Assembly: GCA_902783005.1 (NCBI GenBank)
Contig: CACZPI010000059.1
Coordinates: 12,356-76,355 of the forward strand
Direction: 5' to 3'
DNA: 64,000 nucleotides
Source: an uncultured Ruminococcus sp.
GTDB taxonomy: Bacteria > Bacillota > Clostridia > Oscillospirales > Ruminococcaceae
Positions 2,206-64,000 of the stretch are shown one piece after another (position 1 is the stretch's first letter; each line of letters begins with the position of its first letter). A program made the translations under genes and the position numbers. The notes under the pieces are model-generated. The model made no database searches, was not told where the DNA came from, and was given only the letters and a program-made list of their open reading frames with translations.

Positions 2206-3264
2206 TCATTCCGATGCAACCGGCAAAAGCAGGAGCTTTTGCATGAAATCATCGGTTCCGTTGCGTTCATCAAATCGCTTCGCAATCTTTGCGGCTTCTC
2301 TGTAGAAGTACCGTGCCATACCGTCAGGATCAGAAGGAATTTCGGATCCGTCGGGGACTCTGACAATGCAGGCAGCATTAGTTTGCCTGATCTGCTCCGC
2401 CAGATGTGCAGCTCCAACCAGAAAATGCACCTTCATCCAGGGATTCTTCGATTCCAGATACATCGCCAGGTGGTTTGAAAGAAGCTGTGCCCCATGTGCA
2501 GGGTCAGTCTGACTGTACAGAGACATCAGCGTGCCGATGTTATGCAGATAATAGGGATTATCCTTTGCGTAGGGCTCGAGCAGCTTTGCATAATGAGCCG
2601 CCTTGTCATAGTCGCCTTTTCTGATATAATAGGTCAGAAATTTATGGTAAGTAGACTGGGGCAGCGCAGAGGAACGCATCTTTCCGGAAAGGATCGGCTC
2701 TGCGGCACGGAATGCCTTTTCCTCCTGGTCTGTCAGAAGATAATACTCGACCTGATGGTTATAATACAGCGGCCTGCCGTCAGAAATCTCATCCAGCGGT
2801 GCTTCAAGAAAGCGATAGAAATCCGCTGCCGCCTGTGCACGGTCAATATGCCAGTAAACAAAACCGCGCTTCATATAGTAGATGTTCAGACTGTGACCGC
2901 CGTCCTGGAGCCGTCTTTTGAAAAGGCGGAAATACCGGTCGATTTCTTCCTTGGTTATCTGCGGGAATTCCTCTACCGCCTCCACGATCCAGCGGAACGT
3001 AATCAGCATCAGATGGCTGCATTGTCCGTCCTCCTGCAATGCTTCATGGCTGTCAAACAGTTCAAGCAGCTCCGGAAACATGATCAGTGCATAGTACCGA
3101 TCTCCGCAGAAGATAGATTCTTCGATGTAATCATAACGGAACATAAATTGCCATTTCAGATCCTGCTGCCGGTCTGCTTCACGAATGGCATCGCGCATTG
3201 CACTCAGACGCGGCGTTCCGCGGTCAAGTGCTTCAAAGCCTGCTTCGGTATCCTGAAAACTCAT
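2206..3264 (-). CDS. Hypothetical TPR-like helical protein (352 aa), paralog of the N-terminal half of the downstream gene
   Basis: Complete ORF. AAGGAGG lies 7 nt before the ATG and 12 nt after the htpG stop. TPR-like helix-pair signature (RKGDYDKAAHYAKLLEPY). Confidence 0.8.
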   Translation of the reverse strand: MSFQDTEAGFEALDRGTPRLSAMRDAIREADRQQDLKWQFMFRYDYIEESIFCGDRYYALIMFPELLELFDSHEALQEDGQCSHLMLITFRWIVEAVEEFPQITKEEIDRYFRLFKRRLQDGGHSLNIYYMKRGFVYWHIDRAQAAADFYRFLEAPLDEISDGRPLYYNHQVEYYLLTDQEEKAFRAAEPILSGKMRSSALPQSTYHKFLTYYIRKGDYDKAAHYAKLLEPYAKDNPYYLHNIGTLMSLYSQTDPAHGAQLLSNHLAMYLESKNPWMKVHFLVGAAHLAEQIRQTNAACIVRVPDGSEIPSDPDGMARYFYREAAKIAKRFDERNGTDDFMQKLLLLPVASE

Positions 3265-3276
3265 TGTATCGCCTCC

Positions 3277-5052
3277 TTATGATACGCCCCATTCCAGCAG
3301 GCGGATCAGATTGTCATTGAACACGGTCATTTCACCGCCCTGCAGCGGAAAACGCCCTGTCAGAAGTGACTGCACATAAAGGATCTGCAATGCGACCCTT
3401 GCCTTCTCCATGTCTTCAAGGGAAGCCAGCCGGCGAATCAGCGGATTGCTCCAGTTCAGATAGAGCGTCGCCCGATGTCCTTTCAGCTCTTCGGCAAAAG
3501 AGGAAAGCATGGATGCAAACATTTCGCCTGAATGCTCCTGCGAATGGCGGATCTCGCGCAAAGTCTCCGCATCCTCATCCAGCATATAGAAAACCGGAAG
3601 CGTGGAAGGTGAAAAATTCTTGAGCTGCGCATCACAGTCATATTCGTCGAGCATCATCCGGGCTATGCGCATCAGATCAGAAGCGCTTCCGGTGTCCTCG
3701 GGTTCGGTAAGGAATTCATCAAAGGACACCATTGCAAGCGGACAAAGCTCCACGCTGCTGTCATATTCCTGCATCATCCGCAGCAGCGAAGCATCGTACA
3801 CATAGCAGGCATTGACAAGGAGCTGCCCCTGTGCCAGCATCAGAGCGGCCGTGCGGTGGAATTGATTGATATCCGTTGAAAAATGAATGATATCCCGGCG
3901 TTTGAGAAGGTCACGTCCGGTCAGCTCCCCCATATTCGTTTCAAAATGCAGAAACGGAATGAATGTCCGGAAGAAATCCTCATCTTCTGCTGCCATGGAC
4001 TTGATCGCCATGAAATGCACCTGGATAATCCGTTCAAGCAGTGCAGGATTCCGGTGAGACAACTCCATGAGATAGGCAGAAATGCATTTGCTCAGTTCCT
4101 CCCGCGCTTCAAGCAGCAGATCATCCTCATAAAAGCTTTCCCGCGATGCAGTAGGCCGCAGCTGCGTGGTATTGATAAAGCATCTGAGAAAACCGGTCCA
4201 TTTCGGGAGCAGTGCTTCTCCGTCCTCTGTCAGGAGCAGATTCTTCAGATAGATTCTATGGCTTCCCTTTGCATGCACACTGACTGCATGAGGCAAGATA
4301 TAGGCAACGCCGCTGAACAGACCTTTAGCGGATTCCAGAGGAATATAGCCCAGAAAATCCGTGTCGAAAATGCGTTTCCCAAGCTGCTCCACACTTCCCG
4401 CACTTCCGAAGTCCACATTGATCTGCCGCTCCCCTTCTGCATCTGCAATCAGGATCGGAATGGTGATCGGCAGTCCGTAATAATGAATCAGCTCAGTCAG
4501 TCGTTCTGCATCATAGTACGTTTCAGCGCCGGGTTTCGCATTCAGAATGATATCCGTACCGATTTCCGGCTTTTTCCCGCCTGTCAGCTCTGTGATCGTA
4601 TAGGTTCCGTCCGGCATCCCCCGGAATTTCCATGCATGCTCCGGATCACGGACGCTACGGGTATGTACCAGGATTTCATCAGAAACCATAAAGCAGGATA
4701 ATAAACCGATACCAAACCGGCCGATATAATCCTCATACACGCGGCCGGTTTCCAGATCCCGCTTGGAGCTCTGCCCGATCACCGCAAGGAACTGATGGAT
4801 CTCATCACGAGTCAGACCCGCACCGGAATCGGTAAAGACCAATTGACGGCCGGGATCGACTTTGATCCGTAAATGCGCATCCCGCAGATCCGACTGCTGT
4901 TTCTTTCGTGCACTGATGGCATCAATTCCATTTTGCAGCAGCTCGCGGATGAATACCTCCGGCGTGCTGTACAGATGGTTGGCCAGAATGTCGATCATAC
5001 CGCCAAGATTAACCTTAAATACAAATTGCTCCTCCAAACCGGGGCACCTCAT
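3277..5052 (-). CDS. htpG: HSP90-family molecular chaperone (HtpG-like, GHKL ATPase)
   Basis: Bergerat-fold boxes ELLQNGIDA (N box), DSGAGLT (G1) and GRFGIGLLS (G2). The N-terminus aligns with E. coli HtpG from FKVNLGGMIDILANHLYS. The track start at 5145 lies upstream of the predicted -10, so ATG 5052 (MRCPGLEEQ) was chosen; its SD is weak. Confidence 0.88.
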   Translation of the reverse strand: MRCPGLEEQFVFKVNLGGMIDILANHLYSTPEVFIRELLQNGIDAISARKKQQSDLRDAHLRIKVDPGRQLVFTDSGAGLTRDEIHQFLAVIGQSSKRDLETGRVYEDYIGRFGIGLLSCFMVSDEILVHTRSVRDPEHAWKFRGMPDGTYTITELTGGKKPEIGTDIILNAKPGAETYYDAERLTELIHYYGLPITIPILIADAEGERQINVDFGSAGSVEQLGKRIFDTDFLGYIPLESAKGLFSGVAYILPHAVSVHAKGSHRIYLKNLLLTEDGEALLPKWTGFLRCFINTTQLRPTASRESFYEDDLLLEAREELSKCISAYLMELSHRNPALLERIIQVHFMAIKSMAAEDEDFFRTFIPFLHFETNMGELTGRDLLKRRDIIHFSTDINQFHRTAALMLAQGQLLVNACYVYDASLLRMMQEYDSSVELCPLAMVSFDEFLTEPEDTGSASDLMRIARMMLDEYDCDAQLKNFSPSTLPVFYMLDEDAETLREIRHSQEHSGEMFASMLSSFAEELKGHRATLYLNWSNPLIRRLASLEDMEKARVALQILYVQSLLTGRFPLQGGEMTVFNDNLIRLLEWGVS

Positions 5053-5106
5053 TTCATGATTTTGAATTCCGGCACCACAGCGATGCCATTTTGCAAATAC
5101 ATCTAT

Positions 5107-5135
5107 ATTGTACCATAGATACACAGAAAAAACAA
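5107..5135 (-). promoter_or_regulatory. Candidate sigma-A promoter of the htpG operon (TTGTTT-17-TGgTACAAT)
   Basis: Read on the minus strand; extended -10 TG present. No CIRCE-like inverted repeat seen. Confidence 0.4.
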
Positions 5136-5217
5136 GTATTTTCATAAAAAACTACACAGGAATCTCACACAGGACTGCCAAAGTCTGCAATTGCTTCTTC
5201 TTTTTTCGCGTTTTCTA

Positions 5218-51168: not shown

Positions 51169-53184
<2,016 letters not shown>

Positions 53185-53240
53185 TTATTATACCACATAT
53201 CCGGGAAATTAGCAAGGGGGTAATCACTTTTTCCTCATCT

Positions 53241-53269
53241 ATTATATCACAGAATGTTCGGCAAGTCAA
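53241..53269 (-). promoter_or_regulatory. sigma-A promoter of ligA (TTGACT-17-TATAAT)
   Basis: Perfect hexamers on the minus strand ~90 nt upstream of the ligA ATG. Confidence 0.7.
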
Positions 53270-53293
53270 ATGCCCCCGCAGACACGGGGGCAT
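53270..53293 (-). terminator. Hairpin terminator after the Cys-rich protein gene
   Basis: ATGCCCCCG-tgtctg-CGGGGGCAT followed by TTTGA on minus; the short U-tract makes it weak. Confidence 0.55.
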
Positions 53294-53303
53294 CCATGAA
53301 AGG

Positions 53304-54098
53304 TTAACTGCCGTAGGGAATTTCGCCGCTGCCACAGCCGCAGCCGTTTCCGGAGCTGTTATCTGTCTCATTCAGAGACAGGGGCGCAAACTCCTCCGTG
53401 GGGAAGCGCATCTTGTCAAAGACAGCGCACGGTGCCTCTGTGTCAACGCTGCATTCCTTGCTCGGGATCGTATACTCATAGGTCGGCACCAGCAGCGTGA
53501 CCGGGCGCGTCAGTTCAATGACGGAGAACAGACCGAGCGTCATCACAACAGTCCGCACAGTCGGCGGCATCTGCCGCTGTTCCGTGCCGGCAGCAGGCTG
53601 GCAGCAGACAGATGCGATCTTTGTTTCCAGTGCCAGCGGAGGAACCACCTGGACATTGCAGCTCGGCAGATTGACGACCTCGCAGCAGTCGTCCATATTC
53701 CCGATGGAAACGCCGGTACTGGAAAAAGACTGCGTGTTCGATTCGCTGCCGTACAGAATGCTGCTCTTACCCGCATATACGGTGCCTTCCATGACGGTGG
53801 GCGTCTCGCAGGCATGCGTATAGCACAGCAGCTCCACACGGAATGTAAATGTGATGTCAATATTGTAGAACCCGCGGTTGAACGGTACCGGTTCAATCCG
53901 CATGCAGACATCCTGCACCCGCACGCATTTGCACTTGACAAGCTGGATGTTTGCAGGCAGCTCTCCGGCATCAAGCAGCACAGGCACATTCGACAGGCAA
54001 TCACGGTCGCTGCAGCTGTCAAATACGCGGTTGACCTTGATCGGGACGGCATCGGATGCACGGCGTTCCGTACCGTCGCCATTCATTTCAAAGCTCAT
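53304..54098 (-). CDS. Hypothetical Cys-rich protein (264 aa) ending in ..GNGCGCGSGEIPYGS
   Basis: AGGAGGG 6 nt before ATG 54098. Multiple Cys pairs (FDSCSDRDC, DDCCEVVNLPSC); no family recognised. Confidence 0.7.
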   Translation of the reverse strand: MSFEMNGDGTERRASDAVPIKVNRVFDSCSDRDCLSNVPVLLDAGELPANIQLVKCKCVRVQDVCMRIEPVPFNRGFYNIDITFTFRVELLCYTHACETPTVMEGTVYAGKSSILYGSESNTQSFSSTGVSIGNMDDCCEVVNLPSCNVQVVPPLALETKIASVCCQPAAGTEQRQMPPTVRTVVMTLGLFSVIELTRPVTLLVPTYEYTIPSKECSVDTEAPCAVFDKMRFPTEEFAPLSLNETDNSSGNGCGCGSGEIPYGS

Positions 54099-54184
54099 AA
54101 AAACCCTCCTGTTCATTCTGTTACAGGGAATCGGTCAATTCCCTTGGTACAGAATATTCAGGAGGGTTCGATTTTGTGACAGGT

Positions 54185-54541
54185 TCAGTCCTTCATCTCC
54201 GGCTTGCCATAGATCTGCTTGAAGAAGCAGGAATAGCTGCCGGTATGGCAGGCATTTCCGGTCTGCTCTACATTGATGAGCAGCGTATCGTCGTCGCAGT
54301 CGGCAAAAATGGAAATGACCTTCTGCAGATGGCCGGAGGTTGCGCCCTTGTTCCAGAGCTCCTGACGGGAACGCGACCAGTACCAGGTATACCCGGTTTC
54401 CAGCGTTTTCCGCAGGCTTTCCTTGTTCATATATGCCAGCATCAGGACAGTTTTGGTATGAACATCCATCGTAATGGCAGGAATCAGGTCGGATTTCACG
54501 AAATATTTATCCAGATCATTCAGATCAATCAGTGAGGACAT
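54185..54541 (-). CDS. hisI: Phosphoribosyl-AMP cyclohydrolase (stand-alone, no HisE domain)
   Basis: [32 protein letters not shown] motifs; 118 aa. AAAGGAGA RBS. Confidence 0.93.
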
Positions 54542-54554
54542 TGGAATTCTCCTT

Positions 54555-55304
54555 TCAGAAAAGATTGGCTGTCAGCGCCGACTTCCAGCGGGTATACAGT
54601 GCGGCATCATCCGATCCCGGCTGTTCTCCGTTCATAAGTGCCGTATAGACACGCTGACCTGCAAGATTGCCTCCTGCCGGAAGCACAGCGGGATCCTTCT
54701 TCCCCGGCATCATCTGACCGGGAACGGCAATGACCGCACGAGCAGGCGGATTTCCGTTCGCATCCGTAATGCGGTTTTCCGATTCAGAAGGAGCATAATC
54801 ACGAAACGTCAGCCTAAGTCCGGGCGGCAGGAGCACCTCATCCTCATCCGCCTTGGCATACTGCGAGAGCTGCTCTGCCATGATGATACAAGGGGTATCC
54901 TCCTGCAAGCGAAACCGCATCAGGACAACACCCACCCGGTCACCGTACTGCGGCAGGAAACCGCTTCGGCATGTGGAGGTAAACGACATGGTTCTGCCCT
55001 CTGTAGACATCCGAAGATAATCCGCGAGACGCTCCACACGGTACACCTCGCGTGCATCTCCTCCGGGCTGAAATGCCGAGATCAAGTCACGCAGCAATGA
55101 AATGAGGCGTTCTTCATCCTCCAGAATCGCAGAATTCAGCCGTTTTCTCTCTGCTGCGCGGGCTCGTTCTGTTTCGATGCCGGGGAAAAACAGGGAATTC
55201 AGAACAACATACGCCTTTCCGTCTCCCCAGAAGGGATCATTCCCCTGCACATCTCCGATGTAATACCGCACGGCACGGCATTGCGCTGCTGTCAGCGGAT
55301 TCAT
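54555..55304 (-). CDS. ADP-ribosyltransferase-like protein (R-S-ExE class, C3/VIP2-like core), cytoplasmic, 249 aa
   Basis: Ordered ART motifs: N-terminal helix block ([17 protein letters not shown]), Arg region VYRVER, STS-like FTSTC, and EDEVLLPPG (ExE followed by LLPPG). No signal peptide. ATGA overlap with the hisF stop. Confidence 0.65.
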
Positions 55305-56056
55305 CGGACAATGATACCCTTGCTGCGGCAGTCATCCTTGACCTGCTGCACCGTCAGCTCATGGAAGTGAAACAGCGATGCTGCAAGCGCTGCGGAGCAA
55401 TCCGTCCGCTCGAAAGCCTCTGCAAAATCGCCCAGCTTCCCGGCGCCGCCGCTTGCGATCACAGGAATGCTGACCGCATCAACGACTGCCTTGAGCATCG
55501 GCAAATCAAAGCCCCCCTTGACACCGTCTGTATCAATGGAATTCAGGCAGATCTCCCCTGCACCGAGCTGCTCGATCTGCTTTACCCAGTCAAGCAGATC
55601 AAGCTGCATGTCGATACGGCCGCCGTTGATATACACCGTCCAGTTGCCTGCCGGTGTCTTTTTGGCATCAATGCCGACGCAGATGCACTGGCTGCCGAAA
55701 ATGTCGGCACCGTCCTTGATAAGCTGCGGGTTCTGTACCGCCTGCGAATTGACAGAAACCTTGTCCGCACCCGCACGCAGCGTTTCCCGGATGTCATCAA
55801 CGGTCTTGATGCCGCCGCCGACTGTCAGCGGAACGAAAACGCGCTTTGCCGTCTCGCGTACCACATCAAGCATTACGCCGCGGCCTTCATGAGATGCAGT
55901 AATATCATAAAAAACGATCTCGTCCGCACCCTGCTTGTTGTATTCTGCGGCGCATTCCACCGGGTCACCGACCTCGCGGATGCCCTCAAAATTCACGCCC
56001 TTGACAACCCTGCCGTCACGCACATCCAGACAGGGAATGATTCGTTTTGCGAGCAT
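55301..56056 (-). CDS. hisF: Imidazole glycerol phosphate synthase cyclase subunit
   Basis: [14 protein letters not shown] and ASGGAG blocks. AAGGAGGG RBS. Confidence 0.95.
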
Positions 56057-56067
56057 ATAGCCCTCCT

Positions 56068-56301
56068 TTATTGATTGACAGGCTTTGCCTTAGACGACTG
56101 CTTCAGCTTCTGTATATCACCCGGGGATACCCATTGTTCCGTATAGCCGCAGCCGCAGCAGATATAGCGCTCCACCGAAACATTGGAGAAAATGGTCGCA
56201 CCCACCGCGATGCCCTTTGTGCTGCTGTCGAGAAATCCGTCATTGACAAAGCAGCGAATATCATGACTGCCGCATTTGGGACACTGTTTAGACTGTTTCA
56301 T
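56068..56301 (-). CDS. Small zinc-ribbon protein (77 aa) inside the his operon
   Basis: CPKCGS..(41)..CCGCGYTE four-Cys ribbon. ATG 56301 overlaps the hisA stop (TGATG). It ends 11 nt before the hisF ATG, and its stop codon overlaps the hisF SD (TAAAGGAGGG). Confidence 0.65.
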
Positions 56302-57023
56302 CAAGCATTCTCCCTGGTGTAGGAAACCGCCTCGGCAAGATCGAGCGTTCCCTGATACAGCGACTTGCCGGCAATGGTTCCGTACAGTCCCATATTCCGG
56401 CAGATCCGGATGTCCTCCATGGTATGCACACCGCCGCTGGCGATCACATTCATGGAAACCGCATCATGCAGGGCAGACAGCTGCTCGGCATTGACGCCGG
56501 AAAGGGTGCCGTCCTTGGAGATGTCGGTAAAAATCACCGTTCTGACACCGATCTTCTCCATTTCCTTTGCAAGAGAAATGTAATCCACGGTAGAGGCATC
56601 CAGCCAGCCCTCCACGGCAACCATGCCGTTCTTGGCGTCGATCCCGACCGCAATGCGCTCGCCATATGCCTTGACAGCTTCCTCAACAAGCGCCGGATTC
56701 TTCAGGGCAATGCTGCCGAGGATCACGCGGGAAACGCCGCCGGAGAGATACATCTCCATGGTCTCCATTGTGCGGATGCCGCCGCCGACCTCCACCTTCA
56801 GGGGAGTATGCCTGGCAACGTCGAGGAAAATTGAAGTATTGACAGGCTTGGCATCCTTGGCGCCGTCAAGATCGACCATATGGATCCACTCCGCACCGGC
56901 CCTGACAAAGCCCTGTGCCGTTTCCATATAATCCTCTGCAACCTTGTGAGCCGTACCGTAATCACCGCGGACGAGGCGCACGCAGTTGCCGTCCTTAATA
57001 TCAATTGCAGGGAGAATAATCAT
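56301..57023 (-). CDS. hisA: ProFAR isomerase
   Basis: IILPAIDIKDG, DLDGA and VGGGIR motifs. Confidence 0.95.
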   Translation of the reverse strand: MIILPAIDIKDGNCVRLVRGDYGTAHKVAEDYMETAQGFVRAGAEWIHMVDLDGAKDAKPVNTSIFLDVARHTPLKVEVGGGIRTMETMEMYLSGGVSRVILGSIALKNPALVEEAVKAYGERIAVGIDAKNGMVAVEGWLDASTVDYISLAKEMEKIGVRTVIFTDISKDGTLSGVNAEQLSALHDAVSMNVIASGGVHTMEDIRICRNMGLYGTIAGKSLYQGTLDLAEAVSYTRENA

Positions 57024-57622
57024 ACCAGACCTCCGAAATTACGCAGGATCTGCAGTCCGACTTCGCCGGATTTCTCCGGATGGAACTGCGCTCCGAATAC
57101 ATTGCCGCCGTCATACACCATTGCCGGAACCTTGCCGCCGTATTCTACCCAGGCAGCCAGATTGGCATCGGGGCATTTTGCCGCAAAGGAATGCACGAAG
57201 TACACGAAGGCTTCCTCAGGAAGTCCCTGCAGCAGCGGGCAGTCAACACCCGGTTCCAGCTTGTTCCATCCCATATGCGGAATGATCAGGCCAGGCGCAT
57301 CCAGACGCTCTACGGTTCCGGGAATCAGGCCAAGACCGGCACATTCCTCAAATTCATATCCGGTTTCCAGAAGCATCTGCATACCAAGACAAATGCCAAG
57401 CAGGGGCTTTTTCTGTGCCTGCGATTTCAGAACATCGACAAGTCCCTTCTGGTGCAGCATCTTCATTGCAGCAGGAAATGCACCGACACCGGGGAGGATC
57501 ACTTCATCTGCCGCTTCGATCTCAGCCGGTGCTTCGGTCAGCTTGTTGGGCATTCCCAGGTAATCGAGCGCATTCTTGACGCTGAAAATATTACCGGCGC
57601 CGTAATCTACAATTGCAATCAT
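57020..57622 (-). CDS. hisH: Imidazole glycerol phosphate synthase glutaminase subunit
   Basis: IAIVDYGAGN, GICLGMQ (catalytic Cys) and QFHPEKS. Confidence 0.95.
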   Translation of the reverse strand: MIAIVDYGAGNIFSVKNALDYLGMPNKLTEAPAEIEAADEVILPGVGAFPAAMKMLHQKGLVDVLKSQAQKKPLLGICLGMQMLLETGYEFEECAGLGLIPGTVERLDAPGLIIPHMGWNKLEPGVDCPLLQGLPEEAFVYFVHSFAAKCPDANLAAWVEYGGKVPAMVYDGGNVFGAQFHPEKSGEVGLQILRNFGGLV

Positions 57623-58203
57623 CCCAGCATTCCTTTCGTTGAAAAGACTTCGCCGTCTCCGGTCGGTGCCGCCGCAATGCGCAGCGCATGGGCAACGGCC
57701 TTGAAGAGTGCTTCGGTCTTGTGATGGTCGTTCTTGCCGTACATGACATTGGCATGGAGCGTAATGCCTGCATTGAAGGCAAATGCCCGCAGGAATTCCT
57801 CGGTCAGACAGGTATCATACGCACCGATCATGGCATTGGTATACTCGGCGTTGTAGACCAGAAACGGACGGTTGCAGATATCCATGCAGCAGAAGGCAAG
57901 GCTTTCATCCATCGGGATATAGGCACTCCCATACCGCTTGATACCACTCTTGTCACCGAGCGCCTTCGCAAGTGCCTGTCCGAGCACAATGCCGGTATCC
58001 TCTACGGTATGGTGAGCATCCACATGCGTATCACCGACGGCATGAATCACCATCGGAATCCCGCTGTGTACCGTCAGTGCCGTCAGCATATGGTCAAAGA
58101 ATCCGATTCCGGTTGAAATATCGTATTTCCCATCCTCCGGGAGAATGGTCACGGTAATATCCGTTTCCTTGGAAGTGCGGGTTACGGTGGCTGTCGTCAT
58201 CAT
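57619..58203 (-). CDS. hisB: Imidazoleglycerol-phosphate dehydratase
   Basis: GIGFFDHML, DTHVDAHHTVED and NDHHKTEA motifs. Confidence 0.95.
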   Translation of the reverse strand: MMTTATVTRTSKETDITVTILPEDGKYDISTGIGFFDHMLTALTVHSGIPMVIHAVGDTHVDAHHTVEDTGIVLGQALAKALGDKSGIKRYGSAYIPMDESLAFCCMDICNRPFLVYNAEYTNAMIGAYDTCLTEEFLRAFAFNAGITLHANVMYGKNDHHKTEALFKAVAHALRIAAAPTGDGEVFSTKGMLG

Positions 58204-59264
58204 GCACCCTCCTTTGCAAGAATCTCCGTCAGTGCTGCATACAGCTGTTCCATTTCGGCATCGGTGCCAATGGTGATCCGGAGCGAATTGCTGATACGCG
58301 GCTTATTCCAGTAACGGACAAAAATGCCGCGGGATTTGAGCGCTTCAAAGATCCTGCCGGCATCTGCCGAACGATGGGATGCAAAAATAAAATTGCTCAT
58401 CGAATCCGGGAAGGTGAAGCCAAGCGCGGTCAGACGCTTCTTGGCGTTTTCGCGGGTTGCAATGATCCTGCCTGTCATTTCGCGGAAATAGGCATCATCC
58501 CGGATGGCCTGTGCGCCGCACTGAATGGTCAGATGATTCATGGTGTAGGAATTGACAGAGAACTTCACATCATTCATATAGCCGATCAGCTTTTCCGAGC
58601 CGATCGCAAAGCCGATGCGGATGCCGGCCATGCTTCTCGATTTTGAGAAGGTCTGTACAACCAGAAGATTCTCATATTTTTCGAGCAGCGGCAGCGCACT
58701 CTGTCCGCCGAAATCAATATAGGCTTCGTCTACAATGACAATGGAATCCGGATTAGCCTTCAGGATCTCCTCGATCAGTTCCAGTGATTCCAGTACACCG
58801 GTAGGAGCGTTCGGATTCGGGAAAATGATGCCGCCGTTCTCCTGCCTGTAATCATCCGGATCGATCCGGAAATCCTCTGTCAGCGGAATCTGCTTGTACG
58901 TGATCCGGTAAACATCAGCCCAGACATCGTAAAAGGAATAGGTCACATCCGGAAACAGTACCGGCTTATCGGAATTGAAGAAGGTCATGAACGCCATTGA
59001 CAGAACGTCATCCGATCCGACACCAACAAAAACCTGCTTCGGATTCACACCGTAATTCTCTGCGATCGCATCCACAAGCACCTGTGCATTCGGATCCGGA
59101 TATTTGCGCAGCAGATCTGTGTCAAACTGCGTCAGTACTTCACGCACACCGGGTGCGGGCGGATAGGGATTCTCATTGGTGTTGAGCTTGATGATATTCT
59201 GCTGCTTCGGCTGTTCGCCGGGGGTGTAGGGCACCACCCGGCGGATATTGTTTTCCCAGCTCAT
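58200..59264 (-). CDS. hisC: Histidinol-phosphate aminotransferase
   Basis: LNTNENP and the PLP-lysine block TFSKSRSMAG. ATG 59264 follows GAGGAG. The track start 59297 overlaps hisD. Confidence 0.94.
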   Translation of the reverse strand: MSWENNIRRVVPYTPGEQPKQQNIIKLNTNENPYPPAPGVREVLTQFDTDLLRKYPDPNAQVLVDAIAENYGVNPKQVFVGVGSDDVLSMAFMTFFNSDKPVLFPDVTYSFYDVWADVYRITYKQIPLTEDFRIDPDDYRQENGGIIFPNPNAPTGVLESLELIEEILKANPDSIVIVDEAYIDFGGQSALPLLEKYENLLVVQTFSKSRSMAGIRIGFAIGSEKLIGYMNDVKFSVNSYTMNHLTIQCGAQAIRDDAYFREMTGRIIATRENAKKRLTALGFTFPDSMSNFIFASHRSADAGRIFEALKSRGIFVRYWNKPRISNSLRITIGTDAEMEQLYAALTEILAKEGA

Positions 59265-59265
59265 A

Positions 59266-60558
59266 TCAGTTCTCCTCAAAGCGAACCTTGATGGCATTTG
59301 CGTGTGCGGTCAGGCCTTCACGCTCTGCAATCAGGACAATGTCATCCTTTGCCTGGCGCAGCGCATCCTCGGTGTAATAGATATAGCTCGAACGCTTGAT
59401 AAAGCTTGCCACACCAAGCGGCGAGAAGAAACGAGCCGTACCGGAGGTCGGAAGAACGTGGTTCGGCCCTGCATAGTAGTCACCGAGCGGCTCGGATGCA
59501 TAGGAACCGAGAAATACGGATCCGGCATTGTCGAGGCAACCGATGTATTCCAGCGGATTCTCCATGACAACCTCAAGGTGCTCCGGAGCAATGGCATTTG
59601 CAAGCTCGATCGCCTGTGCCTTATCACGGGCAATGAGCATTGCGCCGTAGTTCTCCATGGATTCCTTGATAATATCCCGGCGTTCCAGATATGCCATCTG
59701 ACGGATCACCTCTGCTTCAACCTTGTCCGGAAGCGCCGGATCCGTTGTAATCAGAATTGCGGAAGCAAGACGGTCGTGCTCTGCCTGGCTCATGAGATCG
59801 GCAGCCACAAACTTCGGGTCAGCCGTGTGATCTGCCATGACCAGAATCTCGCTGGGGCCTGCGATCATATCAATATCCACAACACCGTACAGCAGCTTCT
59901 TTGCCGTTGCTACGAAGATATTGCCGGGGCCGACGATCTTGTCAACCTTCGGAATCTCCTCTGTGCCGTAAGCAAGCGCTGCAATGGCCTGCGCACCGCC
60001 GGAGAGGAATACCCTGTCAACACCGCAGATCGCCGCGGCCACCAGGATGTCCTTATTCGGTGTACCGTCCTTGCAGGGCGGGGTAACCATGATGATCTCC
60101 TTGACACCTGCGATCTTTGCAGGAATCGCATTCATCAGCACGCTCGACGGATAAGCCGCCGTACCGCCCGGCACATACAGGCCGACGCGCTCCAGACCGC
60201 GGACACGCTGTCCGAGAATGACGCCGTTCGGCTGTGCATCCGTAAAGCCCTGCGTCTTCTGACGGTTGTGGAAGTTGGCAATGTTCTCCTGTGCATTCAG
60301 CAGAGCGCTGACAAATTCCTGATCCGCCTCAGTGAGTGCATCATTGATGACTTCACGGGGTACCTCATAATACTGTGGCAGATTGCCGTCAAACTTCTTG
60401 GTATATGCCTTGACTGCTTCGTCGCCGCCCTTGCGGACGGTGTCGATGATCTCTGTTACGATCTGCGTTACCTTCTTGTCGGTCTCGCCCGTGCGGGTCT
60501 CAAGATCCTTCAGAAATTCGTATTCTGCCTTGCCGTCACACTGAATCTTCTTAATCAT
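59266..60558 (-). CDS. hisD: Histidinol dehydrogenase
   Basis: GLYVPGG, AGPSE and SQAEHD motifs; 430 aa. Confidence 0.95.
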
Positions 60559-61186
60559 TGATCTGCTCCTCCACTTTCTGTACCAGTGCTTCGATCTCCT
60601 GCTGACGCAGCTTCAGGCTGACGGTGTTCACGATCAGTCTGGCGGAGATCTGTGCTACATCCTCCACGACTTCAAGGCCGTTTTCCTTCAGAGTCGTGCC
60701 GGTCTCTACAATATCCACGATTCCGTCAGCAAGTCCCAGCAGCGGGGCAAGCTCCACGGAGCCTTCGATCTTGACAATATCAACGTCCATGCCCTTATTC
60801 TCAAAGAAGGCACGGGTAACATTCGGGTACTTGGTTGCAATCGTCTTGACGCCGAAGCCGTCATAGAACGGATAATCCTTCTTGGTCGCCAATGCGAATT
60901 TGCACTTGCCAAAGCCCAGGTTGACCAGCTCAAAGAGCTTGCCGTTCATTTCCATGAGCGTATCCTTGCCGACAACGCCCATATCGCAGACACCATGCTC
61001 CACATAGGTAATAACATCTGCGGCCTTTGCCAGCACAACCTCCATATTGCCGTCAGGAATCGGGAGGATCAGACGTCTTCCCTTCTCATGGACAGCGGTA
61101 CAGTCATAACCGAGCCTTTCGAGCAGGGCAACTGTGTCCTTTTCCAGTCTTCCCTTTGTCAGGGCGATCCGCAGCGGTTTATTCAT
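60551..61186 (-). CDS. hisG: ATP phosphoribosyltransferase, short (HisZ-dependent) form
   Basis: LRIALTKGRL and DIVETGTTLKENGL; 211 aa without the C-terminal regulatory domain. Confidence 0.94.
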   Translation of the reverse strand: MNKPLRIALTKGRLEKDTVALLERLGYDCTAVHEKGRRLILPIPDGNMEVVLAKAADVITYVEHGVCDMGVVGKDTLMEMNGKLFELVNLGFGKCKFALATKKDYPFYDGFGVKTIATKYPNVTRAFFENKGMDVDIVKIEGSVELAPLLGLADGIVDIVETGTTLKENGLEVVEDVAQISARLIVNTVSLKLRQQEIEALVQKVEEQIND

Positions 61187-62393
61187 CTGTACGCACCTCC
61201 TTCACACCTTCTGCACCAACAAGCAGGACTCTTGCGATCTGATGTGCTTTTGCAAAATCAACCGCATCCTCTGCATCCAGTGCAAACTCCACACAAAGCC
61301 CCTTTGCACGCAGCTGTTCTGCCTGCGCAACGGCAGCAGCCTCGCATCCGGCCTGCGCGGCAACCAGCACATCTGCCGGTTCCGGCTCAGGGCTGTATTT
61401 CTTGCCAATCACATTCGCAACGGCATCGACATTGACTGCCATGCCGACAGCCGGTACATCATAGCCGAATTCCGACAGCAGCATGTCATAGCGACCACCG
61501 GAGATCACCTCTTCGCCGTAGCCCTCCATATAGCCTTTGATCACAAGACCAGTGTAATAATCAGTCTTGTTGACAAGTCCGAGATCAACCATGATCTTTA
61601 CATCACCGGCAATCGCGCTGACAGTACCGAACAAGGTCTGCATGCTGTCCAAAATTTCCTGGATGCGGCTGTCATTGAATACCTCGGCTGCACGGGCAAA
61701 TACCTCTTCCCCGCCGAACAGTGTCGGCAGCTTGCGCAGTGCAGCAGTGATGCTGTTATCACCCAGGGTATCGAGCAGGTCATTCAGAGCTGGATAATTC
61801 TTTGCTTCGATCAGGCTGCGAATCTCCTCTTTCTGTGCAGGCGTTGCATTCAGACGATGCATCAGTTCACGGAAAATACGCACATCACCCAGCTCAAGCG
61901 TTGCACTTACAGCAAAGCCCGGAACCTCCTGACCTACCGTGGACAGTACAGACAATGCCGCAGAGATCACCTCTACATCCGCCATACGGGAAGACGAACC
62001 GATCAGCTCAATGCCGGTCTGATTGATCTCCACACTTCTGCCCTTCAGGGAAGGTGCAAAATTATAGACAGGCTGTGTATAATAGAGTCGCAGCGGCAAA
62101 GAGGCATCCTTCAGCCGCGTTGCCACAACACGGGCGATCGGCATGGTGGAATCCGGACGGACTACCACCAGACGCCCCTTGTTGTCGGTAAGTTTGCAAA
62201 GCTCTTCCTGCGGAAAATAGCGGGAATTGCGATTAAAAACATCATAGAATTCCAGTCCCGGTGTAATCAGCCGGGAATACCCCATGGATTTGAAGATCGC
62301 ACGGGTACGGTTCTCTACAATGCGCTTGAGAGCACATTCCTCAAACAGATAATCCCGTGTTCCCTCCGGGGTGATCAGATCAAATCGGCGCAT
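61179..62393 (-). CDS. hisZ: ATP phosphoribosyltransferase regulatory subunit (HisRS paralog)
   Basis: Class II aaRS-like core (PEGTRDYLF, RLYY, GGRYD) without an anticodon-binding domain function. 8-nt overlap with hisG. Confidence 0.92.
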   Translation of the reverse strand: MRRFDLITPEGTRDYLFEECALKRIVENRTRAIFKSMGYSRLITPGLEFYDVFNRNSRYFPQEELCKLTDNKGRLVVVRPDSTMPIARVVATRLKDASLPLRLYYTQPVYNFAPSLKGRSVEINQTGIELIGSSSRMADVEVISAALSVLSTVGQEVPGFAVSATLELGDVRIFRELMHRLNATPAQKEEIRSLIEAKNYPALNDLLDTLGDNSITAALRKLPTLFGGEEVFARAAEVFNDSRIQEILDSMQTLFGTVSAIAGDVKIMVDLGLVNKTDYYTGLVIKGYMEGYGEEVISGGRYDMLLSEFGYDVPAVGMAVNVDAVANVIGKKYSPEPEPADVLVAAQAGCEAAAVAQAEQLRAKGLCVEFALDAEDAVDFAKAHQIARVLLVGAEGVKEVRTDE

Positions 62394-62488
62394 ATACTAC
62401 CTCTTTCTTCATTTTCATTCTTCATACGAATGGTTTTCGTTTCTGCTTGCTTTAGCGTATTACTACATTACCGTAGTATCATAGTAAT

Positions 62489-62517
62489 ATAATACCATAT
62501 TAACAGCCACATGTCAA
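62489..62517 (-). promoter_or_regulatory. sigma-A promoter of the his operon (TTGACA-17-TGgTATTAT)
   Basis: Read on the minus strand. The leader to the hisZ ATG is ~85 nt with two short hairpins only. Confidence 0.65.
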
Positions 62518-62611
62518 GTCATTGATACCGCGCGACCCGGATTTTGGCAGAATGACGGGGATACTCCACAAAATAGGGAATATCCCGCTCGTTTTATTCA
62601 GAAAATGATCC

Positions 62612-63556
62612 TTACATCGGATCCTGGAGCTGAATCAGATCGCCAAGACGTTTGTTCCAGGCTTCGTCTTTGAATTTCTGGAATCCACCCCACGGGAAGA
62701 AGGTCATCTCACCGACGTATACATGTCCTCCGATGATATAGCAATCCACGCGGACAAACGGAATTCCCGCAGACATCTTTTCACAGACCTCCACAAGTTC
62801 ATCATAGCATTCCGGCTTTTCAAAGCGCAGATCATCTGTCGGATAGTCGATCTCCATCGTGGTACGCTCCCAGTTCCGGTCATATGCACCACAGAAATGG
62901 GCATCCGGCTTGGAGCCGTCGGCAAGGGAATGATTCTGCCAGATCAGCGTGTACATCAGCTTTCCGCCAAAGCAGTAATTCTTATAGTCGATCAGATCTT
63001 CGCCCATGTACTGTTCGGCAATGATCTTCCTATCTACATTTTTGTACGGCCATTCCCGGGAACGGATAAAATAATCAATGGACTGCGTATAATTCAGATA
63101 CCGCAGAGCTTCCTTCCTGTCAAATGATTTCTGACTGCGGCATACTTTAACACCACCAGCATGATTTGCTTTCAATACAAATTGATCCGGCAGCTTGTCA
63201 AATTCAATATCCTCGGGACGATCCCAGACGCCAAGCAGTGGGAAGGTGTGTTCGGCACCAACACGCTCAGCTATGATCTGTTTGATTTTATACTTGTCTA
63301 CCATAGATGTATAGAGCGGATTGCGTTCATGCAGCTTGCGCCAGTTATTTTTTTCATTGAAGGTTTTCGGATGTTCCAGATCCGGTTCAACGCCAAATGC
63401 TTCGCGATACTTTTTTATGATATATGACTGGTCATCCATACCTGCATGAAACCAGATCTTTTCAATGCAGGTATGTCTCACCAGAAAATGCGTAAGGCCG
63501 TTTCCCAGTATTCCCTTGGATCTCAAAAAAACCAACATGTTTTGGTAAATAGACAT
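62612..63556 (-). CDS. TupA-like ATP-grasp fold amidoligase family protein
   Basis: FNEKNNWRKL, FVLKANHAGG and the C-terminal VRVDCY..GEMTFFPWGG pattern of the TupA-like family. ATG 63556 lies 9 nt after GGAGGA. Confidence 0.8.
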   Translation of the reverse strand: MSIYQNMLVFLRSKGILGNGLTHFLVRHTCIEKIWFHAGMDDQSYIIKKYREAFGVEPDLEHPKTFNEKNNWRKLHERNPLYTSMVDKYKIKQIIAERVGAEHTFPLLGVWDRPEDIEFDKLPDQFVLKANHAGGVKVCRSQKSFDRKEALRYLNYTQSIDYFIRSREWPYKNVDRKIIAEQYMGEDLIDYKNYCFGGKLMYTLIWQNHSLADGSKPDAHFCGAYDRNWERTTMEIDYPTDDLRFEKPECYDELVEVCEKMSAGIPFVRVDCYIIGGHVYVGEMTFFPWGGFQKFKDEAWNKRLGDLIQLQDPM

Positions 63557-63603
63557 TTTCTTCATTCCTCCAATCAATATGTCACACTCTGAATGTCAAT
63601 TCA

Positions 63604-64000
63604 TCAAAAGAAGGCCATTTGAGTCGATTTTGGCAATTCACCGAAAGCGCCGCGTTCCTCGAGCATCTCAATGATTGTCTTGGAAGCGCCGCTCTGTGCC
63701 TGGAATTCCTCAATAGACATGTATCCTCCGGCCTGTGCCGCAGCATACAGACCCTCTGCCGCACCCTCGCCAACACCCGGCAATGCGGAAAACGGAATTC
63801 GCAGCTTGTTCTCAGCCTCATCGACCAGGAATTTGGTTGCATGAGATTTATTCAGGTCAATCGGCAAAAAGTCCATTCCGCGTGCCATCATCTCATTGGC
63901 GATGAGCATGATATCCAGCACATCATTTTCGATCTTCGACCGGTCATTTCCTTTGGCACGCAGTTCATTGATTTTCTCCTTGACCGCACCAATGCCCTGT
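63604..64000 (-). CDS. polC: DNA polymerase III PolC-type, C-terminal fragment (5' part outside window)
   Basis: C-terminal PolC sequence (ANEMMARGMDFLPIDLNKSHATKF..IPFSALPGVGEGAA..LPKSTQMAFF). The frame stays open to the window edge. Confidence 0.9.
   Translation of the reverse strand, partial: QGIGAVKEKINELRAKGNDRSKIENDVLDIMLIANEMMARGMDFLPIDLNKSHATKFLVDEAENKLRIPFSALPGVGEGAAEGLYAAAQAGGYMSIEEFQAQSGASKTIIEMLEERGAFGELPKSTQMAFF

Follow-up and report, generated by a model that had tools for sequence, protein, structure and literature searches.

A predicted ADP-ribosyltransferase gene lodged as a passenger in a variable slot of the histidine operon of an uncultured Ruminococcus

The histidine biosynthesis operon of an uncultured Ruminococcus sp. 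(GenBank assembly GCA_902783005.1) carries, between hisF and hisI, a gene for a predicted ADP-ribosyltransferase (ART), and we report here that this gene is one passenger among many in an operon slot whose content varies between close relatives. The sequence analysed is a stretch of 64,000 nucleotides (contig CACZPI010000059.1, positions 12,356 to 76,355 of the forward strand), hereafter the window, and coordinates refer to it. The open reading frame (ORF) occupies 54555..55304 on the minus strand and encodes 249 amino acids (aa) from an ATG start. A first-pass annotation, made from the sequence letters, had placed a 249-aa ORF between the two genes, its start overlapping the hisF stop and its stop abutting the ribosome-binding site of hisI; both junctions are as it described, and the strand, which it had not given, is minus. 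Indeed, hisF ends on that strand with GTC CGA TGA and the ORF opens with ATG AAT CCG, the ATG lying within CGATGA, which yields an ATGA overlap (55301..55304) that reads as translational coupling and recurs in the sister species Ruminococcus sp. RUG10795 (locus L011). At the other end, the TGA stop (54555-54557) is directly followed by a 13-nt spacer, AAGGAGAATTCCA (54542..54554, minus strand), that holds the hisI ribosome-binding site, and the hisI ATG comes at 54539-54541. The slot is thereby flanked upstream by hisF (55301..56056, minus strand; PF00977, 2.8e-83) and downstream by hisI (54185..54541, minus strand; PF01502, 2.1e-37), a stand-alone PRA-CH of 118 aa.

The rest of the operon (56301..62393, minus strand) was assigned by Pfam matches and comprises hisZ (61179-62393), hisG (60551-61186), hisD (59266-60558), hisC (58200-59297), hisB (57619-58203), hisH (57020-57622) and hisA (56301-57023). 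A second passenger sits in the hisA-hisF junction and abuts both genes: a zinc-ribbon-like ORF of 78 aa (56068..56304, minus strand) with two CxxC pairs (four Cys), for which a profile search gave no significant family match, Zn_ribbon being weak only, and which is absent in L011. The operon order is thus hisZ-hisG-hisD-hisC-hisB-hisH-hisA-(78-aa ORF)-hisF-(ART)-hisI. No hisE (PRA-PH) was found in the operon (54185-62393) or in the operons of relatives, so that it must lie elsewhere in the genome.

Within the protein, the first-pass annotation had pointed to the ordered R, S-T-S and E-x-E elements of C3/VIP2-type mono-ADP-ribosyltransferases behind an N-terminal helical block, and this assignment withstood both profile and structural scrutiny. 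The letters of the N-terminal block are present as AVRYYIGD (residues 11-18) and YVVLNSLFF (32-40), followed by VYRVER (87-92), FTSTC (108-112) and EDEVLLPPG (154-162). The predicted NAD-binding arginine, R89, is encoded at 55038..55040 (Y88-R89, 55038-55043), the S110-T111-C112 counterpart of the STS motif at 54969..54977, and the predicted catalytic E154-D155-E156 motif, which precedes VLLPP, at 54837..54845, all on the minus strand. Conservation was read from an alignment of 34 relatives, the family alignment, and from a second one that joins the Ruminococcus proteins with those of cluster 1808, described below. R89, R92, S107, S110, T111 and E156 are invariant in the former; R89 and S110 are so in both, and E156 across the whole superfamily. 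E154 is at least 90% conserved in the Ruminococcus-centred solo family and is E or Q in the cluster-1808 relatives, while position 112 is Ser in at least 90% of relatives and Cys in this ART. The family alignment also revealed an N-terminal signature specific to the family (Y15, G17, D18, Y32, N36, E46, R49, E52) and a C-terminal one (Y237, W240, K241).

An AlphaFold model built on the family alignment is confident throughout (pLDDT 93.4, pTM 0.90). In the model, five N-terminal helices precede the core, R89 stands at the end of strand 85-92 (beta-1), S110-C112 lie in the next strand, 109-112 (beta-2), E156 opens strand 156-159, and an extra helical hairpin (212-248) follows the core; this predicted placement is the canonical R-S-E layout. 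When the model was compared with the PDB using Foldseek, all 50 matches listed were ARTs (probability 1.0, E about 1e-5 to 1e-4), with no non-ART assignment among them; they included C3bot, C3stau, C3cer, iota-Ia, CDTa, C2-I and BECa, as well as SpvB, Vis, Plx2A, VsdC and a Listeria ART effector. Similarly, the viral structure library BFVD returned Alt/Mod and MuF-ART proteins. The Pfam profile of such enzymes, PF03496 (ADPrib_exo_Tox; gathering threshold 23.4 bits), matched 16 of the 34 relatives at E <= 0.01 (best 1.4e-6), and a precomputed match to it is present on seven relatives; on the query, which stays below the threshold, it aligns residues 106-175, the STS-to-ExE region, with profile positions 116-181. 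Other sequence searches gave little: NCBIfam profiles did not match the query, PHROGs yielded only a 0.29 match, and searches of PDB sequences with the query, the family profile and a homologue (P0045) returned spurious helical or GNAT matches alone, so that only the fold search was informative against the PDB.

In a Kyte-Doolittle scan with 19-residue windows, hydropathy peaks at 0.85 over the whole protein and at 0.09 among windows that begin within residues 1-12 (covering residues 1-30). As the first-pass annotation had noted, neither a signal peptide nor a delivery domain was found: the hydropathy scan gave no signal peptide or membrane segment, profile search and model gave no extra or delivery domain, and profile annotation of the window gave no binary-toxin B component among nearby genes. 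The fold assignment and the intact catalytic set are thus well supported, and enzymatic activity is predicted from fold and residues.

Homologues at E <= 1e-3 number 62, nearly all from metagenome-assembled genomes of rumen and gut Ruminococcus or Oscillospiraceae, and all lack a name. Together with the invariant motif columns and a ratio of non-synonymous to synonymous rates (dN/dS) of 0.36 against a 96%-identical allele, they indicate that the ORF is a real gene and not a chance reading frame. An exhaustive profile search of 1.84 billion cluster representatives found only 337 relatives, which makes the superfamily a small one. The PADLOC model RTas1808 (labelled DRT) matched the query at 2e-27 (94 bits), and this match is partial, residues 17-188 aligning with profile positions 24-200 of 278. 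A distant branch of proteins of about 280 aa, with 25-30% identity to the ART, matches RTas1808 over its full length (1e-63 to 1e-126), and one of them, P0168, is a fusion of the cluster-1808 module with the HD-CE part found at the C-terminus of the UG24 reverse transcriptase (RT) model (1.3e-136). Cluster 1808 was described as a gene of unknown function linked to UG24, namely an accessory of one variant of these Class 3 UG/Abi RTs, and a defensive role was predicted for UG24 on the basis of its loci (Mestre et al., 2022; PMC9226505). In the joint alignment, cluster-1808 and Ruminococcus proteins share the invariant R89, S110 and E156 (E/Q-x-E) and both terminal signatures. The sequences thus place the ART in a small unnamed family, mostly of Ruminococcus, that is a full-length and diverged relative, or sister, of cluster 1808, and since these residues and signatures are common to both groups, the UG24 partner appears to be an ART-fold enzyme too, a point not noted in that study.

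Distant members are also found fused to a CapP-like M78 peptidase, an HD-CE or a GNAT domain; P0149, for instance, is a CapP-like M78 peptidase-ART fusion. Another, P0062, lies directly behind a CapH-like helix-turn-helix regulator and ahead of a DndA/SspA-like gene (L006, 5402-9080). P0168, P0062, P0119 and P0124 align over their full length with the ART family and keep the R, S and E-or-Q-x-E residues. At the Ruminococcus ART, the neighbours are hisF and hisI, and no adjacent UG24 RT with its C-terminal phosphohydrolase (HD-CE) is present; nor does any HD-CE or CapH/CapP-like gene adjoin it, the other UG24-linked gene, cluster 1299, not having been searched for. No RT occurs among the annotated recurrent neighbour clusters of solo-family loci, and a tblastn of the window with P0168 recovered only the ART itself and a weak match (E 0.006) in a HATPase_c_3 protein 50 kb away.

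The first-pass annotation had further proposed that the ART works with or regulates the histidine enzymes, or was recruited for the nucleotide chemistry of their pathway. The distribution of the gene speaks otherwise. Among 185,579 species-representative genomes of GTDB, 115 relatives were detected, and the loci of 80 of them were fetched. The arrangement hisF-ART-hisI was found in a single one, L011, which has an ART 67% identical to ours with the same coupling; in the other 79, no his gene lies within 6 kb of the homologue. Two short metagenome contigs, with ARTs 96% and 67% identical, agree with placement in the his operon, and in all, three alleles or species carry an intact ORF. A tree of the ART proteins, built by neighbour joining, follows clade-specific gene contexts, which argues for vertical inheritance at stable sites within sub-lineages, with occasional moves. 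The his-operon position is a derived state of one small clade.

Clustering of the neighbours, which covered 72 loci, identified no universal partner gene and no conserved antidote (macrodomain, ARH or other). Recurrent neighbours reflect lineage synteny and include a phosphofructokinase, a PdxK/ThiD-like kinase, GGDEF-EAL proteins and lipoproteins, with His_Phos_1 and PnuC in a few loci. For want of a conserved neighbour, a toxin-antitoxin or effector-immunity pair of the DarTG, Tre1-Tri1 or ART-ARH kind was rejected. In the sister clade of the window ART (L001/L012, 5449-7875), the gene follows a 180-aa His_Phos_1 phosphatase and, in L001, a 350-aa ORF without known family and a PnuC-type NMN transporter come after it, which forms a NAD-related neighbourhood. 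P0003, with His_Phos_1 and PnuC among its neighbours, had suggested a link to NAD salvage. This idea was dropped because the pattern looks like lineage synteny: His_Phos_1 recurs upstream in only five loci, and the complete arrangement is confined to one small clade.

A reciprocal survey of related his operons, which had been proposed as a check, led to the same end. Starting from hisF, 80 metagenome loci were fetched, of which about 35 had a readable hisF-hisI junction with a hisF 72-94% identical to ours, and none of these junctions holds an ART. The gene is thus sporadic and absent from close relatives with otherwise comparable his operons, the very pattern that had been set beforehand as speaking against a histidine link. 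Some junctions are direct, with 3-30 bp between hisF and hisI (L113, L118, L121, L136, L137), and others carry a membrane protein of about 120 aa of the SdpI family (at least 15 loci), a GNAT with an ORF of 123-138 aa (L098, L106), a GNAT with a 129-aa ORF of cytidine-deaminase fold (L114), an AAA_15/AAA_21 ATPase of 242-248 aa (L120, L133), a 360-aa PF03601 membrane protein (L115) or further unannotated ORFs. The closest relative by hisF (L091, 94%) has no ART; an unrelated coding segment of about 120 aa begins there at an ATGA overlap with the hisF stop, and no similarity to a decayed ART remnant was found in its slot. Several of the cargo genes begin at such an overlap (loci L091-L147). Similarly, about half of the readable hisA-hisF junctions are direct, and the rest hold GNATs, membrane proteins or unknown ORFs. 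With at least eight different cargo types seen among close relatives, both junctions behave as variable slots within this Ruminococcus clade, with the ART as one of their many passengers; its position in the operon is therefore no sign of a histidine-linked function, and the comparison of sequences and loci indicates that the place of the gene is not a functional coupling to histidine synthesis. A role of the ART as a substitute for HisE was likewise rejected, since hisI stands alone in the same way in relatives whose slot is empty or carries other cargo.

Against its 96%-identical allele, the ART shows 10 non-synonymous and 9 synonymous differences (the dN/dS of 0.36 given above), compared with a dN/dS of 0-0.06 for hisI, ligA and the 270-aa downstream ORF on the same contig. 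Between the window and L011, the ART is 67% identical and the histidine proteins 78-91%. The gene is thus under purifying selection and evolves markedly faster than its housekeeping neighbours, which fits an accessory or conflict-related gene and could also reflect relaxed constraint. Its GC content (0.56) is host-like, and together with its retention in two species this led us to reject a recent foreign acquisition. The absence of a mobile-element context, remarked upon in the first-pass annotation, was confirmed: tblastn against 50,697 phage and 72,556 plasmid records found no relatives, and no mobile genes flank the ART, its flanks being his genes at 0-13 nt.

Several other features surround the slot. 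A promoter-like site, TTGACA-17-TATTAT (62489..62517, minus strand), lies upstream of hisZ and, as a consensus match only, is the sole strong candidate promoter for the operon including its passengers; an Rfam scan of 53000-64000 found no T-box and no other RNA element. Directly after this site (region about 62457-62517, minus strand), an inverted repeat TACTAC-N6-GTAGTA has the geometry of a HisR/TrpR-type operator. It was rejected as a HisR operator because its sequence departs from the HisR consensus published for Firmicutes, TTTA-N6-TAAA (PMC9413887). Directly downstream of hisI, a 270-aa ORF (53304-54116, minus strand) without Pfam or PADLOC match is syntenic in many of the relatives for which the downstream flank was fetched (34-71% identity), so that the transcription unit may end with it. 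Some 50 kb from the ART, a 622-aa HATPase_c_3/Hsp90-like protein (3277-5145, minus strand) has weak TmtA-like matches in PADLOC and is the one that weakly resembles (E 0.006) the HD-CE tail of one UG24-type protein; it is followed by a 352-aa ORF (2206-3264, minus strand) that has no annotation, and the two may form a defence-type gene pair.

Taken together, we consider it probable, with a good measure of doubt, that the gene encodes a stand-alone, soluble and cytoplasmic mono-ADP-ribosyltransferase of conflict-system ancestry, probably directed at arginine, which travels as a passenger in the his operon. If the ART works as solved R-S-E ARTs do, NAD+ would be held by Y88-R89 (beta-1) and S110-T111-C112 (beta-2), and E156 of the E154-x-E156 loop would activate the nicotinamide-ribose bond. 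The ExE form goes with arginine acceptors in the class of iota, C2 and SpvB, and the ADP-ribose would, by the same analogy, go to the side chain of an arginine, with hydrolysis of NAD+ as the second choice. Fixation of the passenger presumably took place in an ancestor that this genome shares with one sister species, and the gene would be expressed by read-through from the his promoter with termination-reinitiation at the ATGA overlap. The modified target may then be a non-self or conditional one, for instance a protein of a phage, as the ancestry of the family would suggest. We favour such a target, since the distant relatives that are informative all occur in conflict-type settings, and we do so tentatively, the choice of target being speculative. 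A broad self-toxin does not fit an intact active site co-expressed with the his operon and devoid of a conserved antidote gene.

Several points weigh against this interpretation. The fold matches listed have modest TM scores (0.35-0.55) and identities of 9-16%, and the query reaches only 12.5 bits (E 0.089) against PF03496. The defence role is drawn only from distant relatives at about 25% identity, and the solo Ruminococcus subfamily lives in stable housekeeping neighbourhoods, not in defence islands, and without an RT partner, so that an endogenous role fits equally well. Finally, the hisF-ART-hisI arrangement with its perfect coupling signals has outlived the split of two species whose ARTs are 67% identical, and some benefit from histidine-linked expression is thus possible. 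A bolder version of the passenger interpretation, which we regard as possible and rather doubtful, is that the his junctions are cassette-like slots swapping small immunity, resistance or defence genes, probably by recombination through the conserved his flanks, and that the ART is an RT-independent immune effector descended from the UG24 ART module. The slot cargo (SdpI, GNATs, deaminase, AAA ATPase and ART) would then be expressed through translational coupling to the operon, and UG24 RTs would, with cluster 1808, have an active R-S-E ADP-ribosyltransferase as their partner.

The housekeeping neighbourhoods also agree with an endogenous regulatory ART similar to DraT, whose reversible modification would fall on a host protein that has nothing to do with histidine, the removing hydrolase being encoded elsewhere. 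Stable clade-specific chromosomal sites, a gene tree congruent with synteny, the lack of an antitoxin or immunity neighbour, purifying selection and a cytoplasmic location are all as expected of such an enzyme, whereas the patchy occurrence (115 relatives in 185,579 species genomes), an evolution faster than that of neighbour genes, the ties of all informative distant relatives to conflict-type modules and the lack of a recurring ARH or macrodomain gene nearby are not, and we hold it unlikely. The company kept by the ART in the slot, with an SdpI-family immunity protein, GNATs and the 129-aa cytidine-deaminase-fold protein, has a flavour of resistance or immunity, and a small-molecule ART that detoxifies a xenobiotic, as the rifamycin ART Arr does, would fit this flavour; in its favour, too, the ART has no partner gene and its constitutive expression is tolerated. 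This cargo pattern may however be due to chance, profile and fold searches gave no similarity to Arr, and the ExE motif and ARTT-like loop with its invariant Y149 are typical of protein-directed ARTs such as the C3 and iota enzymes, which makes detoxification improbable.

Even less credit can be given to a tie with histidine, in which the ART would modify a histidine enzyme or another target depending on histidine supply, or act on phosphoribosyl-ATP or phosphoribosyl-AMP (PR-ATP/PR-AMP). It is true that the translational coupling to hisF and hisI is perfect and was kept in L011, that the operon has a stand-alone hisI without hisE, and that ART folds bind ribosyl-N-glycosides. However, 79 of 80 species have the gene away from his genes, the ART evolves much faster than the histidine enzymes, and the closest relatives, with an equally stand-alone hisI, have an empty slot or other cargo, so that their histidine pathway runs without the ART. 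It is just as improbable that the passenger tolerated in the slot has no function, is in decay or is no more than an NAD+ glycohydrolase. The higher dN/dS (0.36 against at most 0.06 for neighbours), the Cys in place of the usual Ser at position 112 and the fast turnover of the slot could suggest decay, yet three alleles or species have an unbroken ORF, none of the catalytic or structural signature residues has been lost, dN/dS stays far below 1, and the model is confident throughout.

As a consequence, proteins labelled "hypothetical" in rumen and gut Ruminococcus gain a fold and a likely chemistry, and the same gain for cluster 1808 could guide work on how UG24 kills or protects. No new layer of histidine-pathway regulation is revealed; operon membership and perfect translational coupling are no guide to shared function here. 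Should this slot behaviour be general, accessory genes of gut Firmicutes may reside in biosynthetic operons more often than is appreciated.

Compared with known systems, the ART shares with the R-S-E mono-ARTs of the C3, VIP2, iota-Ia and SpvB type (PF03496) the same predicted fold, N-terminal helical region included, the Arg standing on beta-1, the S-T-S motif on beta-2 and, behind an ARTT-like loop, E-x-E at the start of the next strand. It differs from them by its low similarity (9-16% identity, TM 0.35-0.55, query below the gathering score), by the lack of a signal peptide and of a delivery or binding domain in a chromosomal, cytoplasmic protein that is no exotoxin, and by features of its own, namely the conserved C-terminal hairpin 212-248 (Y237, W240, K241) and the N-terminal signature Y15, G17, D18, E46, R49 and E52. 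A literature search for ARTs of the gut or of Ruminococcus gave nothing specific. Cluster 1808 (RTas1808) and the ART are homologous along their whole length and have their invariant residues, Y15 through K241, in common; identity is however only about 25-30%, the HMM match covers only residues 17-188, no UG24 RT stands beside the ART, and the neighbourhoods are housekeeping ones. As the description of cluster 1808 gives it no function (PMC9226505), nothing beyond the association can be transferred from it.

Another parallel is the lactococcal Aristaios, a single-gene ART-like anti-phage protein (as summarised in PMC13064643), which is likewise a stand-alone ART-like protein with no obvious partner and is proposed to act against phage, but to which our ART has no detectable sequence relation, tblastn against plasmids and phages being empty. 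As for its site, the concept of 'alien' or ORFan passenger genes inside biosynthetic operons has been reviewed for his operons (PMC10138114), and the ART resembles them in that it is unrelated to the pathway genes on either side, is presumably transcribed along with them and occurs only sporadically in relatives. In our literature search, no description was found of recurrent cargo turnover at two junctions of one operon. Whereas alien operon genes are already recognised, the use of two junctions of a single operon as recurrent slots for varied cargo, several of them coupled through the same ATGA overlap, is less usual.

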